IMG/VR virus record: IMGVR_UViG_2609460125_000009
DNA length: 64,000 bases
Strand: one strand, 5' to 3'
Source of the DNA: a virus
Lineage: Duplodnaviria; Heunggongvirae; Uroviricota; Caudoviricetes
Part shown: piece by piece, positions 2,319 through 55,622 of the stretch
Numbering within the stretch: the stretch's first letter is position 1
Layout: the number at the start of each line of letters is the position of its first letter
Position numbers and translations under genes: made by a program
The notes under the pieces: generated by a model
Databases searched by the model: none
What the model saw: the letters and a program-made list of their open reading frames with translations, nothing else
What the model was told of the DNA's origin: nothing

Positions 2319-3659
2319 ATGACCGAACTTTGCCATACAGGACGCGGGCTGTCCGAAGAGTTTGATGAAGATTTTCAGAACAGATTGACGGCCTATTTTT
2401 GTCGTGATCACGAGTTTCTTACTCGTGCTGGAGATCTGGTTGTACCTAGCCAATTTGCCAATGCGGCCAATGCCATATTGGTTAATATGGTTTCGGGCTA
2501 TTACCGTATGTACAAGAGCGCGCCCTCTTCATCTGCGATTCTGGATATGCTTAAGCGTGCGAAACGCGATAAGACTATCCGTGAGGAACTATTCGCCGAT
2601 GTTGTTGCTGCGTTTAAGCGCATCCTTGCAGAAAAATTGTCTGATACCTCGTACATGGTTGACCAGGTATCAACCTTCGCAAAAAGCGTAGCGTTTGATG
2701 ATGCTCTGATTAAGGCTGCTGAACTGAAAGAGAAGGGCGACTTTCAGGGGGCGATGGCAATCATGGCCAAGGTTCAGCAGATTGGATCGAACGAAGCGAC
2801 CGGAATCTATGACTACTACACCTCCGCAAGTGAGCGATTGAAAGCGCGTGAATATGAGGCTTCAGAGGAGTATGTGCCAAACAGCATTACAACTGGACTC
2901 CCTCTGCTCGATAGGTTGCTGTACCAAAAAGGCTGGGCGAAGCGTGAAATGGTGCTCTTCATGGGGTTCGCTAAATCCGGTAAATCGACCGCAATGGGTG
3001 AGTTTTCCATAAACGCAACGCTTGCTGGCTACAATGTTCTGTATCTCTCGCTGGAGGTTCACACCACCATTTTATCCGACCGTTTTGATGCAAGATTGTC
3101 GGAGACAGAAATGTCCAAGCTGGTGGAACGGCGCGATGAGGTTCATCGTAAGTTGGCAGAGTTGGGAGCCACGAAGGGGATTGGTAGTTTGTGGGTTGTT
3201 GAGCGTCCGTCAGGAAGTATGTCACCGGCAGATCTGGACCGTATGCTTAACAGCATGAAAGCCAATGGCATGGTGCCTGACATGGTTGTTGTCGACTACG
3301 CAGATTTGATGCGTGCCAGTTATGACCTTCGTGATGATCGCGCCAACATTCGTAGTATCTACACCGATTTACGTGCTCTTTATGACAAGCATAACGTTGC
3401 TGGGATCACGGCATCGCAGACAAACCGTGAAGGTGGCGCGTCAGAAGTTGCCACAATGATGCACGCTGCCGACAATATCGAAAAAGTACGTATTGCTGAC
3501 CTGGTAATAACGATCAACAAAACCGAAGAAGAAGAAGCGAAAGGAGAGGCTCGTCTCTACTTTGCTGGTTCACGTAACCAGCAGGGAGGGATCAGCATTC
3601 GCGTTAAACAAAACCTCGAACAAATGCGCTTCATTGAGCGAATCTTAGACGTTACCTAA
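2319..3659 (+). CDS. DnaB-family replicative DNA helicase
   Basis: Walker A GFAKSGKST, Walker B VVVDYADLM, RecA-like C-terminal domain typical of DnaB/T7 gp4 helicases; conserved AAAGGAAAGCACATG start context. Confidence 0.85.
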   Translation: MTELCHTGRGLSEEFDEDFQNRLTAYFCRDHEFLTRAGDLVVPSQFANAANAILVNMVSGYYRMYKSAPSSSAILDMLKRAKRDKTIREELFADVVAAFKRILAEKLSDTSYMVDQVSTFAKSVAFDDALIKAAELKEKGDFQGAMAIMAKVQQIGSNEATGIYDYYTSASERLKAREYEASEEYVPNSITTGLPLLDRLLYQKGWAKREMVLFMGFAKSGKSTAMGEFSINATLAGYNVLYLSLEVHTTILSDRFDARLSETEMSKLVERRDEVHRKLAELGATKGIGSLWVVERPSGSMSPADLDRMLNSMKANGMVPDMVVVDYADLMRASYDLRDDRANIRSIYTDLRALYDKHNVAGITASQTNREGGASEVATMMHAADNIEKVRIADLVITINKTEEEEAKGEARLYFAGSRNQQGGISIRVKQNLEQMRFIERILDVT

Positions 3660-12895: not shown

Positions 12896-12993
12896 CCCCT
12901 CTTCTCCCTGCGCGAATGGCTTAGTTCCCTGTTCGCGCAGTGCTACATTAAACACACTAGTAAATAATTTGTTTTCATAACAAAGGATTAGCC

Positions 12994-24934: not shown

Positions 24935-27274
24935 ATGGCAAAAGGAAAATCCGCACTGGCACTTGCTCTGAAAAAGAAAATCGGTAGCAACGACGAAATT
25001 CAGAAAGTAACTCATTGGATTGACACAGGCTTTCCTCCGTTAAACAAAGCTATTTCCGGTCGTTACGATGGCGGTTTCCCATGTGGTCGTATCGTAGAAG
25101 TATTCGGGCCACCAAGCGCGGGGAAATGTGTTACCGCAGACACCATGCTGCTGACGGAGCGTGGAATGGTAACAGTGAAAGAGTTGTTTGAGATTGAAGG
25201 GTACAAAGCGACATGCACTACTCGCGATGTAGAGCATAACGTTGGACTCATCAATGAAAATGGCGTGATAGAGAAGACCTCACACCTGACATGGAACAAC
25301 CGTCGCAAATTCAAGCGTATTAAGCTGGCATCAGGCGGTTATATCGAGGCTACGTTCCGTCACCCAATCCGTGTGGTTGACGACTTAGGTAATGTCGTCT
25401 GGCGACATGCTGAAAAAATCAGTGTAGGCGACACGATTCCTTCAATGGTTGGCACACATCAATTCGGCGATCAGCACCTGGATGCCAATATCGCAAAACT
25501 GATGGGCTATTTAATTGCTGACGGATACGTGGCCTCTGAAAATTCAGTGAATTTTTCTAACACAGATCCTTTCATCAAGGATGAGTACTACCGCCTCATT
25601 TCGCTGGTATCAGACAAGATGCCAGTTACGAGAAAACATAACGGCTCGGAAGACCATGTGCTGTTTAGCAAAGAGGTGCGTTCGCTGCTTTTTAAAGAAT
25701 ATGGTCTGGAGTATGAGAAAGCTGCTGGCAAGCAGGTTCCGTTGAGTGTGCGTCGCGCCAATAGCGAGGCTCAAATTGCATTCCTTCGCGGCTACTTTGA
25801 GCTGGAATGCCACGTCAATGATGGTCGCTGCATTGAGGTTGTGAGCGCGAGTGGGCTGCTGCTACAGCAAATTCGCCTCATGCTCCTGAATCTGGGGATT
25901 ACGTCAACTATCTCTGAAAAACACGTCGCGGGTTATGAAAATACATATTACCGGCTGTCATTCAGTGGCTCTAATTACGACCTTTTTCTGTCAACGATTG
26001 GTTTCGAATCTCCGGCACGTTTATCAGTGGCAACCAAACGGGACATTGGTTTTGACCGCACTTACTCAGGCTATGTTCCGCACATCAGCGGCTTAGTGAA
26101 ATCACTCTACGAGTCGCTCACCAAGACCACCCGTGAAGACTACGCTCTGGTAGACCACGTTATTGGCCGCGGCGATCGTGTCGGAATAGACAAACTGCGA
26201 GAAATCTATGTCTCCTTCATTGGCAGAAAGAATCGTTTTAACGAGCATCTGTTTGCACAACTGGCAGCGGTAATTGGCTCTAACTTGTTCTACGACGAAG
26301 TCGTGGCTATTGAGGAAGGTGAAGCACCAACGTTCGACGTAGCGATGCCGGAAACACACTCTTTCTGGTCTAACGGGATTATCAGCCACAACACATTCCT
26401 TGCAACAGCAGCGATGATCTCCGCTCAAAAACAAGATGGTCTGGCGGTATTCCTCGATCATGAAAACAGTTTTGACGTTGGCCTGGCTGTAGCCAATGGC
26501 CTGAACGCAGATGAGGATGACGGTCAGTGGGTATACAAGCAGCCAGATACCTTCGAAGACTCTGTAGAGTTGATCGGCACAATACTTAAATTGGTTCGTG
26601 ATGAAGAGCTTATCCCCGAATCAGCACCTATCTGTATCGTGGCTGACTCTCTTGCGTCTATGGTTCCGAACTCCAAAGCCGAGAAGTTCGAAAAGATGGC
26701 TGAAGGCACAGCCAAAGACAAAGATCAGCTAAACATGAACGACAATACGGCACTGGCTCGTGCGACGAGTGCGAACTTCCCTACTCTGGCTTTGTGGGCA
26801 CGCAAATACAACGCCTGCATCATCTTCTTGAATCAGGTTCGCACAAAAATCGGTGTAATGTTTGGCGACCCTACTACGTCGCCAGGTGGAGATTCACCGA
26901 AGTTCTACGCTTCTGTACGTATCCGTCTTGGTGCATCGGTGATGAAGGATGGTAAAGAGAAGATCGGCCAGGACGTAGGCGCAGAATGCATCAAAAACAA
27001 AGTTGCACCACCGTATGGCAAATGCACCTGGAAATTCTACTTCGATCCTACTCGTGGCCTCGACGTTATCGAGTCGCTCGTCGAGTACATGCTGGAAGAA
27101 GGATACCTGCCAAAGAACGCCAGCGGTCGAGTAGAAATTGGTGACAAGAAATACACCAAATCACAGATCGTCGAGATGTATCGGGAGAAGCCACTAGCTG
27201 AAATCATTGCGGCTTTACAGGCAATCGACGACCGGAGATCAAAAGACAATCCCACCGAGTCAGTAGAAGAGTAA
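24935..27274 (+). CDS. RecA-family recombinase interrupted by an intein
   Basis: Extein: GPPSAGK|TFLATAAM P-loop and FLNQVRTKIGVMFGDPTTSPGGDSPKFYASVR, closely matching the RecA core; 422-aa insertion between K64 and T. Confidence 0.85.
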   Translation: MAKGKSALALALKKKIGSNDEIQKVTHWIDTGFPPLNKAISGRYDGGFPCGRIVEVFGPPSAGKCVTADTMLLTERGMVTVKELFEIEGYKATCTTRDVEHNVGLINENGVIEKTSHLTWNNRRKFKRIKLASGGYIEATFRHPIRVVDDLGNVVWRHAEKISVGDTIPSMVGTHQFGDQHLDANIAKLMGYLIADGYVASENSVNFSNTDPFIKDEYYRLISLVSDKMPVTRKHNGSEDHVLFSKEVRSLLFKEYGLEYEKAAGKQVPLSVRRANSEAQIAFLRGYFELECHVNDGRCIEVVSASGLLLQQIRLMLLNLGITSTISEKHVAGYENTYYRLSFSGSNYDLFLSTIGFESPARLSVATKRDIGFDRTYSGYVPHISGLVKSLYESLTKTTREDYALVDHVIGRGDRVGIDKLREIYVSFIGRKNRFNEHLFAQLAAVIGSNLFYDEVVAIEEGEAPTFDVAMPETHSFWSNGIISHNTFLATAAMISAQKQDGLAVFLDHENSFDVGLAVANGLNADEDDGQWVYKQPDTFEDSVELIGTILKLVRDEELIPESAPICIVADSLASMVPNSKAEKFEKMAEGTAKDKDQLNMNDNTALARATSANFPTLALWARKYNACIIFLNQVRTKIGVMFGDPTTSPGGDSPKFYASVRIRLGASVMKDGKEKIGQDVGAECIKNKVAPPYGKCTWKFYFDPTRGLDVIESLVEYMLEEGYLPKNASGRVEIGDKKYTKSQIVEMYREKPLAEIIAALQAIDDRRSKDNPTESVEE
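25127..26392 (+). mobile_element. intein with LAGLIDADG homing-endonuclease domain inside the RecA P-loop
   Basis: Begins with Cys directly after GPPSAGK, ends ...SHN followed by Thr; internal LAGLIDADG-type motifs MGYLIADGYV and FLRGYFELECHV. Confidence 0.75.
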
Positions 27275-27280
27275 ACACAA

Positions 27281-27304
27281 GGCGTCCACAGGACGCCTTT
27301 TTTA
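27281..27304 (+). terminator. rho-independent terminator after the RecA gene
   Basis: ggcgtcc-aca-ggacgcc then ttttttat. Confidence 0.7.
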
Positions 27305-27367
27305 TCTCTTGAAAATATATAAGTGCTTACTTATCATTTTTCACATAACAACCACATAGGAAAACAC

Positions 27368-27568
27368 ATGATCAAAATCTATCTATTGGCAGTAGCCACA
27401 GGCCTTTCAGTGGCTCTCATCTACGGATTACTGGTTCCGTCGCTGATTTCTGCAAAGAGTGATTTGGCCGTCATGCTTGGAGTTCTCGTTGGTTTTGGCG
27501 CTCCAGTAATCGGTCTTATTGGTGGTCGTAAGTTTATTAACTCATTAATCAAAGCAAAGGGGAAATAA
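27368..27568 (+). CDS. small two-TM membrane protein (66 aa)
   Basis: Start at the ATG with GGAAAACACATG context; hydrophobic throughout; directly upstream of the SPFH gene. Confidence 0.5.
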   Translation: MIKIYLLAVATGLSVALIYGLLVPSLISAKSDLAVMLGVLVGFGAPVIGLIGGRKFINSLIKAKGK

Positions 27569-27571
27569 GTA

Positions 27572-28402
27572 ATGAAGAAAGGTTTACTTGCAGTTGCTCT
27601 GGCGGCTATTTGCACAATGGGTCTTACTGGCTGTGATCGCGTGGAGCCTGGATACGTTGGCATCAAAGTAAACAAATTAGGTGAAGACAAAGGGATTGGT
27701 GAAGTGGTTGGCGTTGGTCGCCAATGGACAGGTCTTAACACCGAACTTTACGTATTCCCGACCTTCAAACAAATGAAGACCTACGACGAACCGTTCACAT
27801 TCCAGATGAGTGACGGTACTGCTATTGGTCACAAAATTGGCGTTGCGTATCTGGTTAATCGTGACAAGGTAACGACGGTGTTCCAGACCTATCGCAAAGG
27901 CGTAGACGATATCACCGAATCAGATCTGCGTCAGAAAATTGCCGACTCTCTAAACCGTTTGGCCAGCCGTATGACCACTGACTCATTTATCGACGGTGGT
28001 AAGGCACAATTGCTGGACAACGCACTGAAAGATATTCAGAAAGAGATGTCTCCGGTTGGTATTGAGGTACTGAGCCTGTCATGGGTTGGAAAGCCTGATT
28101 ACCCAAAAACCGTCATTGAATCTATTAACGCCAAAGTAACGGCTAACCAGCGTACTCTGCAACGTCAGCAGGAAGTTGAACAGCGTAAAGCTGAGGCGAA
28201 TATGCTACGTGAACAGGCTAATGGTGAAGCTGATGCTATCCGTGCTCGTGCGCAAGCAGAAGCAGACGCCATTCGTCTGCGCGGTGAAGCTCTGCGTCAA
28301 AACCCGAACGTTATGGAACTGGAAGCCATCAATAAATGGAATGGCCAGTTACCGCAGTACATGACTCAAGGGGCTAACACTCCTTTCATTACAGTGAAAT
28401 AA
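27572..28402 (+). CDS. SPFH/band-7 (prohibitin/stomatin-like) lipoprotein
   Basis: Signal peptide with lipobox LTGC, SPFH-like core, C-terminal coiled coil with AEA-rich repeats. Confidence 0.65.
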   Translation: MKKGLLAVALAAICTMGLTGCDRVEPGYVGIKVNKLGEDKGIGEVVGVGRQWTGLNTELYVFPTFKQMKTYDEPFTFQMSDGTAIGHKIGVAYLVNRDKVTTVFQTYRKGVDDITESDLRQKIADSLNRLASRMTTDSFIDGGKAQLLDNALKDIQKEMSPVGIEVLSLSWVGKPDYPKTVIESINAKVTANQRTLQRQQEVEQRKAEANMLREQANGEADAIRARAQAEADAIRLRGEALRQNPNVMELEAINKWNGQLPQYMTQGANTPFITVK

Positions 28403-28419
28403 CTCCCCTAAAAAGTTCA

Positions 28420-28444
28420 GGCGTCCAGTTGGACGCCTTTTTTA
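28420..28444 (+). terminator. rho-independent terminator after the SPFH gene
   Basis: ggcgtcc-agtt-ggacgcc then ttttttat. Confidence 0.7.
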
Positions 28445-28493
28445 TCGCAATTATCTTATTAAGAAAACAATTTGTTTAAAAGGATAAGAAAAC

Positions 28494-28919
28494 ATGACAG
28501 CTATTAAGAAACTCTACGATGCCGCAAACGTGGCTCTGGATGTTATTGATGATGAAGTAGCAAAAGGCTTTCCTGAACCTGATTGGGCGCATCAGCTACG
28601 AAACGCTATCGCAGAAATGACCCCACCAGATCCAACCCCCGACGAGACAGACTGGCAGCGATTCATCCGTATGTACGCTCAGGAAATAGGTCCAACGCCA
28701 ACGGCAGAGCAAGCAATGCTGCTGAAATACTTCAAAGAGGCGGGGGAGGATTTACCAATTGATGACTCAGCATATTGGTTCCACTGCGCATGGCGTAAGT
28801 ATGACGTGATATTCACACAAGGCATGGGGAGCAAAGATATGGTTGTGTGGCATCTACTCCATATAGACACAGCCGTTGACAGAGTTATTGAACAGTTTTT
28901 CCCTAAACAAGAAGATTGA
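28494..28919 (+). CDS. hypothetical protein
   Basis: 141 aa; conserved AAAACAATTTGTTTAA ... AAAACATG upstream context. Confidence 0.55.
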   Translation: MTAIKKLYDAANVALDVIDDEVAKGFPEPDWAHQLRNAIAEMTPPDPTPDETDWQRFIRMYAQEIGPTPTAEQAMLLKYFKEAGEDLPIDDSAYWFHCAWRKYDVIFTQGMGSKDMVVWHLLHIDTAVDRVIEQFFPKQED

Positions 28920-40132: not shown

Positions 40133-40232
40133 CATATGGTGGGGTATATCCCCACCTTATCTTTGATTTGTAAGCCTTGTTTAAACACATAAGATAACAA
40201 CTTGTTTAAACACATCAAAAAAGGAAAAACAC

Positions 40233-51147: not shown

Positions 51148-51240
51148 CGGTTGTTAGTGCATATGCATTGACCGTCTTTTCGTAAGCAATTCATGTAACT
51201 AGAAAACAACTTGTTTTAACAAATAACAAAAGGAAAGCAC

Positions 51241-51824: not shown

Positions 51825-51963
51825 TGACAAGGGCCAAATGGCCCTTGTGTTTCGTTGACCGAAATAGAGAGTTTGCACCTTTACGTTTAGCTTGCTCCCC
51901 TTTTATGCCACATCACAATAAAGCCAATAAGAAAACAACTTGTTTAAGCATTAGGAAAAACAC

Positions 51964-52530: not shown

Positions 52531-52671
52531 TACTGCACCAGTCGACAGGGGGCGAAAGCCCCCATTTTTACGCCTTAAATCTGCTGTAACGCCTATGAAT
52601 GCAGCTTTTATGCCTTTTCAAGTTTGCGATAATTACACCAATCAGAAAACAAATTATTTAATGGTGTAATT

Positions 52672-55503: not shown

Positions 55504-55622
55504 ACGCTACAAATCCTTCGGCATGAATAAATAAAGGCCATAAGTTGTGGCCTTAAATAAATTGTTTTCTACCTTTTCTTATTTGTGAAAATAACAACAA
55601 CTAGAAAACAACGGAGTTAAGA

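Follow-up and report, generated by a model that had tools for sequence, protein, structure and literature searches.

A moron-type cassette of an SSU5/pMT1-like phage-plasmid encodes an SPFH lipoprotein and a small membrane partner, a putative two-component membrane scaffold

Do two adjacent membrane-protein genes of a tailed virus form a self-contained unit, and what might such a unit do in the host membrane? The question is raised by IMG/VR record IMGVR_UViG_2609460125_000009 (Caudoviricetes), of which a stretch of 64,000 nucleotides was analyzed (the window). Near its middle, a gene for a 66-amino-acid (aa) protein is followed by one for a 276-aa protein. The original prediction, made from the letters alone, described a protein with two transmembrane (TM) segments and an SPFH/band-7 lipoprotein with a long coiled-coil tail. 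It placed them between terminators as an independent transcription unit that may remodel the host membrane. Neither gene is unusual, and both have annotations in public records; in Escherichia phage Cyrano, for example, the small gene is a ‘membrane protein’ and CYRAN_57 a ‘Stomatin-like integral membrane protein’. The best explanation of the region as a whole is an accessory ‘moron’-type cassette of an SSU5/pMT1-like phage-plasmid that encodes a two-component membrane scaffold. In three respects the analysis adds to the existing annotation. The cassette is bounded, lies in a variable slot and, judged by its sequence, has a promoter of its own; the 66-aa protein is a partner of a non-NfeD kind, conserved, fused to the SPFH protein in some cases and marked by a defined loop motif; and the pair ranks among the accessory modules that tailed phages share more widely.

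Both open reading frames (ORFs) were found as first described, with two TM segments in the smaller one, and profile searches settled the family of the larger one. A hidden Markov model search matched Pfam Band_7 (PF01145) to residues 23–209 over profile positions 2–176 of 176 (E 2.6e-30; 106.2 bits, cut-off 23.6). In PHROGs the protein belongs to phrog_200, ‘lipoprotein’ (E 3e-108). The query covers positions 80–359 of that 379-position profile, so the profile has an N-terminal extension of ∼80 residues. An AlphaFold model built with an alignment of 108 sequences (representatives of 50%-identity clusters) had a predicted local distance difference test (pLDDT) score of 93.3 and a predicted template modeling (pTM) score of 0.74; the single-sequence model had a pLDDT of 47. 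The model consists of a β-rich membrane-proximal part (residues 21–95), an α/β part (residues 97–176), the two helices given in Table 1 and a less confident tail. It thus shows an SPFH α/β fold followed by an extended coiled-coil helix, and the long coiled-coil tail of the original prediction is present in the modeled structure. Foldseek searches of the PDB returned full-length matches to HflC and HflK (E 2e-14), prohibitin 1/2 and erlin 1/2; stomatin, flotillin, major vault protein and QmcA were matched at full length as well. By its modeled structure, the 276-aa protein belongs with the SPFH proteins and is built like those that form cages. Among 108 diverse homologues, G49 and W256 are invariant and G258 and P261 nearly so, the last three residues making up a C-terminal KW[ND]GxLP motif. 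The region equivalent to this motif closes the oligomer in other SPFH proteins. Some homologues carry the labels ‘serine protease’ and ‘transposase’; these were rejected because a Pfam scan found no such domains.

The predicted lipoprotein signal also stood up. The signal peptide ends in MKKGLLAVALAAICTMGLTG-C21, which fits the lipobox pattern [LVI][ASTVI][GAS]C, and a regular-expression search found a lipobox in 103/120 close homologues and in 111/150 distant ones. Among the 103 lipobox-bearing close homologues, which are enterobacterial, 97 have aspartate at position +2. Asp(+2) is an established Lol-avoidance signal for E. coli lipoproteins, that is, a signal for retention at the inner membrane.

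The 66-aa protein has hydrophobic segments at residues 7–23 and 35–51 (TM prediction), and its gene is preceded by an AGGA ribosome-binding site 6 nt 5′ of the ATG. It falls in phrog_1130 (E 5e-25), labeled ‘membrane protein’ in PHROGs; profile searches of Pfam and NCBIfam gave zero matches. Its positive charge is concentrated in a basic C-terminal tail. By the positive-inside rule, the protein is predicted to have both termini inside (N-in/C-in), with the short loop SAKSD alone outside, and the annotators of Klebsiella phage KpCHEMY26 gave its homologue the same topology (‘2 TMDs N in C in’). A longer version of the ORF (81 aa) starting at GTG 27323, offered in the program-made ORF list, was rejected since that codon lies upstream of the -10 hexamer of the cassette's promoter-like site and all homologues begin MIK, MRL or MKL; ATG 27368 is therefore taken as the real start. 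The idea that the small ORF is spurious was likewise rejected. The phrog_1130 match, conservation in very distant phages, a ratio of nonsynonymous to synonymous substitution rates (dN/dS) in the range 0.13–0.20 and the position of the promoter-like site all argue for a real gene.

Linkage of the two genes was surveyed in 80 IMG/VR loci whose SPFH protein is ≥77% identical (search query of 10 sequences), and more distant gene contexts were sampled phage by phage. An intact two-TM ORF lies directly upstream of the SPFH gene in 78/80 of the loci. These upstream ORFs encode 62–78 aa (one was called as 113 aa from an in-frame upstream ATG) and are 3 nt from the SPFH gene or overlap it. One of the two exceptions has an internal stop (IMG/VR contig L033) and the other is cut by the contig end. 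In the window, the SPFH ORF starts 3 nt past the stop of the small ORF, and AAGGGG precedes its start. Both PHROGs profiles, phrog_1130 and phrog_200, are thus matched by adjacent genes on the same strand.

When the 66-aa protein was used as a tblastn query, only SSU5-like relatives were retrieved; its wider spread was traced by position, TM prediction, the loop motif and fusions. The partner in the P2-like phage P88 is 27% identical to the 66-aa protein, whereas the SPFH proteins are 77% identical. A partner with the same loop motif is present, unannotated, in lambdoid phage phiP27 (stretch L091, ∼2810–3000), and a Shigella boydii lambdoid prophage has a 62-aa ORF overlapping the SPFH start that is recognized by position and length alone. 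In P1-like plasmids the pair sits between dmt and ban; that of E. coli O55:H7, p12579_1, encodes a 78-aa partner and a 275-aa SPFH protein (L092, 3738–4782). Partners with the loop motif were also found in the N4-like phages KpCHEMY26 and Stenotrophomonas Paxi and in Vequintavirinae phage 4MG, Vibrio CKB-S1, Pseudomonas vB_Pae_U2, T7-like Desulfovibrio ProddE and Burkholderia vB_SR1, and those of P88 and a P1-like plasmid share the motif. The partner gene of vB_SR1 is unannotated in the published genome (stretch L098, ∼1020–1200). An alignment of 22 partners shows that P24 is invariant and that S28 and G38 are nearly so. The consensus, G-x3-P-x-L-I-S-A-x-[SD]-T-x2-V-x2-G, spans the end of TM1, the predicted periplasmic loop and the start of TM2.

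Among the best 150 representatives of 50%-identity clusters, 16 are natural fusions of the two proteins. Each begins with two TM segments bearing the motif, continues through a linker into a third hydrophobic stretch that ends as a lipobox, and closes with the SPFH domain. This order works only if the C terminus of the partner is cytoplasmic and the SPFH domain lies outside. Fusion, adjacency and co-retention (down to ∼37% SPFH identity) are, at the level of sequence, strong evidence that both proteins act together in fixed proportion. By the same comparisons, the 66-aa protein is an obligate partner of the SPFH protein.

The size and topology of the partner raise an alternative, that the module sets the time of lysis. 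The 66-aa protein would then be a class II holin or an antiholin-like protein restrained by an SPFH cage, or the cage would stabilize the inner membrane and so guard it against premature lysis or membrane-targeting abortive-infection effectors. A length of ∼66 aa, two TM segments, the predicted N-in/C-in topology and a basic C-terminal tail are indeed gross features of class II holins, and SPFH proteins restrain channels and transporters. However, no holin family in Pfam or PHROGs was matched, and in the loci examined an endolysin gene never adjoins the pair, its neighbors being replication or early genes. A 1:1 fusion to the SPFH protein also suits a structural partner better than a regulated effector. 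We regard a role in lysis timing as improbable.

We asked how the pair is delimited in the genome. The terminators on which the original prediction relied are present as hairpins with T-runs at both ends of the pair. Terminator-like sites are numerous in this region (7 in 2.2 kb, compared with 2.1 ± 1.5 in shuffles), and the two bounding hairpins are near-identical. Their core, GGCGTCC-N(3–4)-GGACGCC, has exactly two copies in the window, both of them here, where shuffles lead one to expect 0. The left hairpin, predicted to end the recA transcript, is the left copy of a cassette-bounding repeat. Between it and the small ORF lies the promoter-like site, which occurs only once in the window. It is kept in Cyrano (TTGAAA...TATCA) and in Yersinia pestis pMT1 (TTGAAA...TATTAT), despite an overall identity of ∼77% in the latter.

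Neighboring operons are marked differently. A 17-nt motif, AAGAAAACAAWTTGKTT, has 8 copies in the window, compared with 0.15 expected. Its core is the inverted repeat AAACAA-N-TTGTTT, and each copy lies 13–52 nt 5′ of a + strand start codon. This motif looks like an element-specific promoter or operator common to many operons. One copy precedes the gene to the right of the cassette, which encodes a DUF7238 protein (28494–28919; Pfam E 5e-38), and the position of the motif is conserved in Cronobacter pCS1, Enterobacter pDR25-3 and pMT1. A scan of the window did not find the motif in the SPFH cassette. A conserved and unique promoter-like site, together with the absence of the motif found before the neighboring operons, strengthens the case for the independent transcription unit of the original prediction, and the sequence supports a cassette with its own putative sigma70-like promoter.

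The surrounding genome was then considered. The region is 94–98% identical to Escherichia phages CMS-2020a, PhiR41_1 and Cyrano (∼108 kb) and 99.3% identical to a 113-kb E. coli plasmid. The order recA followed by the pair recurs in Salmonella phage SSU5 (where the small gene was matched), in Salmonella plasmids and in Y. pestis pMT1; on this shared arrangement, the window is assigned to an SSU5/pMT1-type phage-plasmid of E. coli. What lies between recA and the DUF7238 gene differs from one relative to the next. In pCS1 there is no gene at this place, in pDR25-3 a DUF2591 gene and in Klebsiella pSECR18-2374B a 258-aa ORF on the opposite strand, and pMT1 combines the SPFH pair with DUF2591. In alignments, the empty site of pCS1 has one terminator copy that runs straight into the sequence to the right of the window's second terminator. 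We infer that positions ∼27306–28444 are a discrete insertion/deletion of ∼1.14 kb with a duplicated terminator of ∼27 bp at its borders.

The cassette is an accessory insert and no part of the replication machinery. It resembles phage morons in its promoter-like site and terminator, in its presence or absence at a fixed site among relatives and in the occurrence of the same genes in unrelated phages. It departs from them in one respect: elsewhere the pair lies inside early operons and shows no obvious signals of its own, and the moron form belongs to the SSU5-like lineage.

These observations suggest how the two products could operate. The pair would be transcribed from the sigma70-like promoter of the cassette with translation coupled, as the 3-nt gap in the window, and overlaps of 4 nt in other phages, imply. 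The 66-aa protein would enter the inner membrane with both ends cytoplasmic, its loop P-x-L-I-S-A-K-S-D alone facing the periplasm. The SPFH protein would be exported, lipidated at Cys21 and kept on the outer leaflet of the inner membrane by its Asp at +2, so that its SPFH domains and coiled coil would lie in the periplasm in the topology of HflK/C. Through its long helix and C-terminal tail it would then oligomerize, and the resulting closed ring or cage would fence off part of the inner membrane. A cage is expected because every structurally solved full-length SPFH protein forms one, and the conserved coiled coil and KWxGxLP tail of the model are consistent with it. The partner, at 1:1, would supply the transmembrane part that the lipid-anchored subunit lacks, with its conserved loop contacting the membrane-proximal SPFH domain. 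We assign the reading up to this point (own promoter, coupled translation, a partner in the inner membrane and a periplasm-facing, lipid-anchored SPFH cage with its partner at 1:1) a probability of roughly 0.55. Localization, cage formation and stoichiometry are thus put forward as inferred.

Several observations weigh against this scaffold. More distant members have serine, threonine or glycine at +2, and sorting could differ among them; in the window, Arg at +3 might weaken the retention signal of Asp(+2). Sequence similarity to proteins of known structure is faint, a phmmer search of the PDB having yielded a single weak match (HflK, 7vhq_E, E 0.007), and the NCBIfam models score well below their cut-offs (HflK TIGR01933, 18.7 bits vs 159.4; HflC TIGR01932, 30.2 vs 134.4). 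There is a single SPFH gene rather than a K/C pair, and its product has no transmembrane helix of its own. Nor is the partner always in place. In Vequintavirinae phage 4MG it is one gene apart from the SPFH gene; beside the SPFH genes of Pseudomonas TL, Erwinia FIfi106 and Sinorhizobium phiM6 it is not recognizable; and phiCbK has a 116-aa three-TM neighbor instead. The literature searched contained no experimental study of any family member, nor a functional study of a phage SPFH lipoprotein; it held annotation-level remarks, in which the role of phage-encoded SPFH proteins is called unclear, the domain is merely listed or an analogy with HflK/C is drawn (PMC13239085, PMC1524935, PMC4936722). 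Finally, no evidence from this analysis links the module to FtsH specifically.

The closest structural comparison is with E. coli HflK/HflC (7vhq, 7vhp, 7wi3, 9cz2). The phage protein shares with them the SPFH1/2 region, a long coiled coil, a short helix and a C-terminal tail, as well as a predicted periplasmic orientation on the inner membrane and a weak but detectable sequence similarity. In contrast, it is predicted to be lipid-anchored at Cys21, whereas HflK and HflC have an N-terminal TM helix. It is encoded by one SPFH gene with no heteropair, is 13–18% identical to them, has a 66-aa two-TM partner, and is phage-borne and dispensable. The missed cut-offs, the single gene and the lipid anchor exclude orthology, and the 276-aa protein is neither an HflK nor an HflC orthologue.

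The likeness nevertheless invites the proposal that the phage protein acts as a surrogate for HflK/C in the decision between lysis and lysogeny, altering FtsH degradation of a CII-like regulator and so tuning lysogenization or the stability of the plasmid-prophage. The best structural matches include HflC and HflK, with which the phage protein shares its predicted topology, many carriers are temperate, and the same suggestion has been made for a Pseudomonas satellite prophage that encodes an HflK/C-family protein (PMC4936722). Against it, the module is kept in obligately virulent N4-like, T7-like (ProddE), Vequintavirinae and T4-like phages, the HflK/HflC equivalog cut-offs were not reached, and the gene is missing from close phage-plasmid relatives that still maintain themselves. 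We consider a surrogate of this kind very unlikely.

Other SPFH systems are less close. The gene order recalls SPFH-NfeD operons (E. coli QmcA-YbbJ, 8z5g; Pyrococcus PH1511-PH1510), which also join a scaffold gene and a small membrane-protein partner in one operon. However, the phage partner is two TM helices and a loop, with no NfeD/OB-fold domain and too few residues to form an OB fold. As the partner has neither that domain nor a match to a Pfam or NCBIfam family, the pair is not an SPFH-NfeD operon. The two scaffolds also face opposite ways, QmcA toward the cytoplasm and the phage SPFH protein, as predicted, toward the periplasm. Prohibitins PHB1/2 and erlin1/2 associate with proteolysis machinery. 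As is predicted for the phage protein, they face a non-cytoplasmic compartment (9o9z, 8rrh, 9o9u, 9vvj), but they are eukaryotic organellar proteins, TM-anchored and heteromeric, with 15–18% identity.

By analogy with HflK/C, prohibitin and erlin, the patch fenced by the scaffold would sequester or regulate an inner-membrane component of the host in early or middle lytic development, and FtsH or another membrane protease or transporter would be the leading candidate for that client. Regulation of a host client, FtsH or other, is a tentative proposal to which we give somewhat less than even odds. The narrower version holds that, during infection, the pair captures one particular machine of the host's inner membrane, either FtsH or a channel or transporter that serves in DNA entry or envelope homeostasis; we regard it as rather unlikely. 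The identity of the client and the benefit to the phage are, we stress, speculative. The evidence is consistent with remodeling of the host membrane or partnering with proteases, as in the original prediction, and either may occur.

SPFH cages (HflK/C, prohibitin, erlin, stomatin, flotillin) have been seen at atomic detail only recently. What phages appear to have is a minimal and portable form of such cages, with one lipid-anchored subunit and one two-TM partner of 60–80 aa, in at least 413 sequenced phages ranging from T7-like and N4-like podoviruses to Lak megaphages. A two-gene system of ∼1 kb that is present in both virulent and temperate phages would be a handy probe of periplasmic SPFH microdomain function, and the module could help to reveal a host membrane process that phages need to control. 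If the pair does capture one particular host machine, it would be a widespread, previously unrecognized host-takeover or exclusion device, common to all three morphotypes of tailed phages. In that case the 66-aa protein, as the source of the transmembrane wall, would represent a new class of SPFH partners distinct from NfeD. The practical outcome for this window is modest.

The distribution of the family bears on its role. A tblastn search found it in 413/50,697 phage records, and an exhaustive HMMER scan matched 2,816 50%-identity clusters at E < 1e-3 (195 at E < 1e-30). Annotated phage SPFH lipoproteins such as P88 gp12 (77% identical), PVP-SE1 gp118 and phiCbK gp180 belong to the same family. 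Temperate carriers include phiP27, Stx2a phages, P88 and SSU5-like phages; N4-like, LUZ24-like, PVP-SE1/4MG-like and FelixO1-like Erwinia phages, phiCbK and T7-like ProddE are strictly virulent. Lak megaphages, a crAss-like phage and Bacillus myoviruses are further carriers, and SPFH ORFs have been reported in the T4-like phages 44RR, Aeh1 and RB43 (PMC1524935). Of 5,426 complete E. coli genomes, 737 (∼14%) have a homologue, at 418 chromosomal and 414 plasmid places. In temperate phages outside the SSU5 group the pair lies within lytic early operons: P88 has it in its Pe early operon and lambdoid prophages on their pL side, and in P1-like plasmids it occupies the dmt-ban interval, which in P1 itself carries the C1-controlled ban promoter. 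In virulent phages the SPFH gene lies among genes for replication and nucleotide metabolism (DNA polymerase, dUTPase or exonuclease). Positions of this kind point to early or middle expression. Retention by obligately virulent phages makes a lysogeny-specific role unlikely. A role in plasmid maintenance is also unlikely because close relatives lack the module, and it is weakened further because the unit is a mobile cassette present in many unrelated phages, strictly virulent ones included.

Both genes are under strong purifying selection. Compared with pMT1, the window has a dN/dS of 0.03 in the SPFH gene and of 0.13 in the partner gene, and a gene-level test detected no positive selection and no sign of an arms race in either gene. 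The comparison with Cyrano gave a different picture for the two genes. The SPFH genes have a synonymous divergence (dS) of 0.02 and zero amino-acid changes (100% protein identity), whereas the partner genes (Cyrano L001, 8059–8259) have a dS of 0.75 and 73% amino-acid identity, which is indicative of old alleles. This difference points to a recombination junction at or near the gene boundary and implies, from the sequences compared, that partner alleles have been shuffled between the window and Cyrano.

The same data bear on a second kind of role, superinfection exclusion or anti-phage conversion, in which the pair, made at the inner membrane and periplasm of a lysogen or an infected cell, would keep out the DNA of other phages in the manner of T4 Imm/Sp, P22 SieA or HK97 gp15. 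The moron-like organization, with its own promoter-like site and terminators, would suit such a function, as would the variable accessory slot in which relatives carry other genes, the predicted inner-membrane/periplasmic location and the frequency of the module in prophages and phage-plasmids of E. coli. Exclusion genes are expressed early, and the replication and nucleotide-metabolism neighbors in virulent phages fit early expression. However, PADLOC-DB v2 models match neither protein, even at E 1. An SPFH protein that is 77% identical between unrelated phage types, and whose dN/dS is so low, is unlike an arms-race determinant, and in P2-like, lambdoid and P1-like elements the pair occupies lytic early operons rather than positions expressed in a lysogen. 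No support for exclusion was found in the literature searched. We judge exclusion unlikely.

A host-directed function, in which the SPFH protein would be a lysogenic-conversion lipoprotein with virulence or immune-modulating activity, is modeled on Pasteurella multocida PM0222. That HflK/C-like protein of 25–35 kDa is encoded in a prophage island, is released in outer-membrane vesicles and signals via TLR1/2, and its deletion attenuates virulence (PMC9872710). The module is present on Y. pestis pMT1 and on Salmonella pHCM2-like plasmids, in agreement with this model. However, homology of PM0222 to the phrog_200 family could not be verified. TLR2 activation is, moreover, a generic property of bacterial lipoproteins, and effects on an animal host cannot explain why virulent phages of environmental Caulobacter, Desulfovibrio and Sinorhizobium carry the family. 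A conversion factor of this type is highly implausible.

Table 1. Positions of the cassette, its predicted elements and the recurrent 17-nt motif in the window
Feature	Position	Strand	Details
Left terminator hairpin and T-run	27279–27305	+	hairpin 27279–27299, 9-bp stem, 6 GC pairs, then TTTTTTATC
Sigma70-like promoter TTGAAA-17-TATCAT (predicted)	27309–27337	+	10/12 matches to consensus
Small ORF, two-TM partner	27368–27568	+	66 aa, MIKIYLLAVATGLSVALIYGLLVPSLISAKSDLAVMLGVLVGFGAPVIGLIGGRKFINSLIKAKGK
Partner loop motif P24-x-L-I-S28-A-K-S-D...G38, predicted periplasmic	66-aa protein	+	conserved across partners
SPFH/Band_7 lipoprotein	27572–28402	+	276 aa; Band_7, phrog_200, AlphaFold model
Lipoprotein signal peptide (residues 1–20) and lipobox LTG-C21, Asp22 at +2	27572–27634	+	
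SPFH1/2 region 21–176; long helix 179–243; short helix 246–255; C-terminal KWNGxLP...PFITVK tail			
Right terminator hairpin and T-run	28419–28444	+	hairpin 28419–28438, 8-bp stem, 6 GC pairs, then TTTTTTATC
AAGAAAACAAWTTGKTT copies	2283–2299, 12962–12978, 28461–28477, 40191–40207		
AAGAAAACAAWTTGKTT copies, continued	51200–51216, 51929–51945, 52643–52659, 55555–55571		

The genes on either side of the cassette have features of their own. The gene 5′ of it (24935–27274) encodes a RecA-family recombinase split by an intein with a LAGLIDADG homing-endonuclease domain, as indicated by Pfam matches to RecA, LAGLIDADG_3 and Intein_splicing. The recombinases at the same site in pCS1, pMT1 and the Klebsiella plasmid are intein-less and ∼358 aa long. 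On the other side, the DUF7238 gene is the first downstream of the cassette and holds the same position in all relatives examined. Cyrano has, on the opposite strand, genes annotated as HicA/HicB toxin and antitoxin (stretch L001, 1673–2521), flanked by the DNA polymerase III alpha gene and the UvsY/gp32/exonuclease/RecA block; this part of Cyrano corresponds to sequence of the window that lies upstream of its recombination genes. The plp/upl region of P1 was considered as a version of the same module and rejected, as the dmt-ban interval there has tRNAs, plp, upl and tciABC, and no SPFH gene is annotated in it. In P1-like elements this interval is another accessory slot with membrane-related genes.

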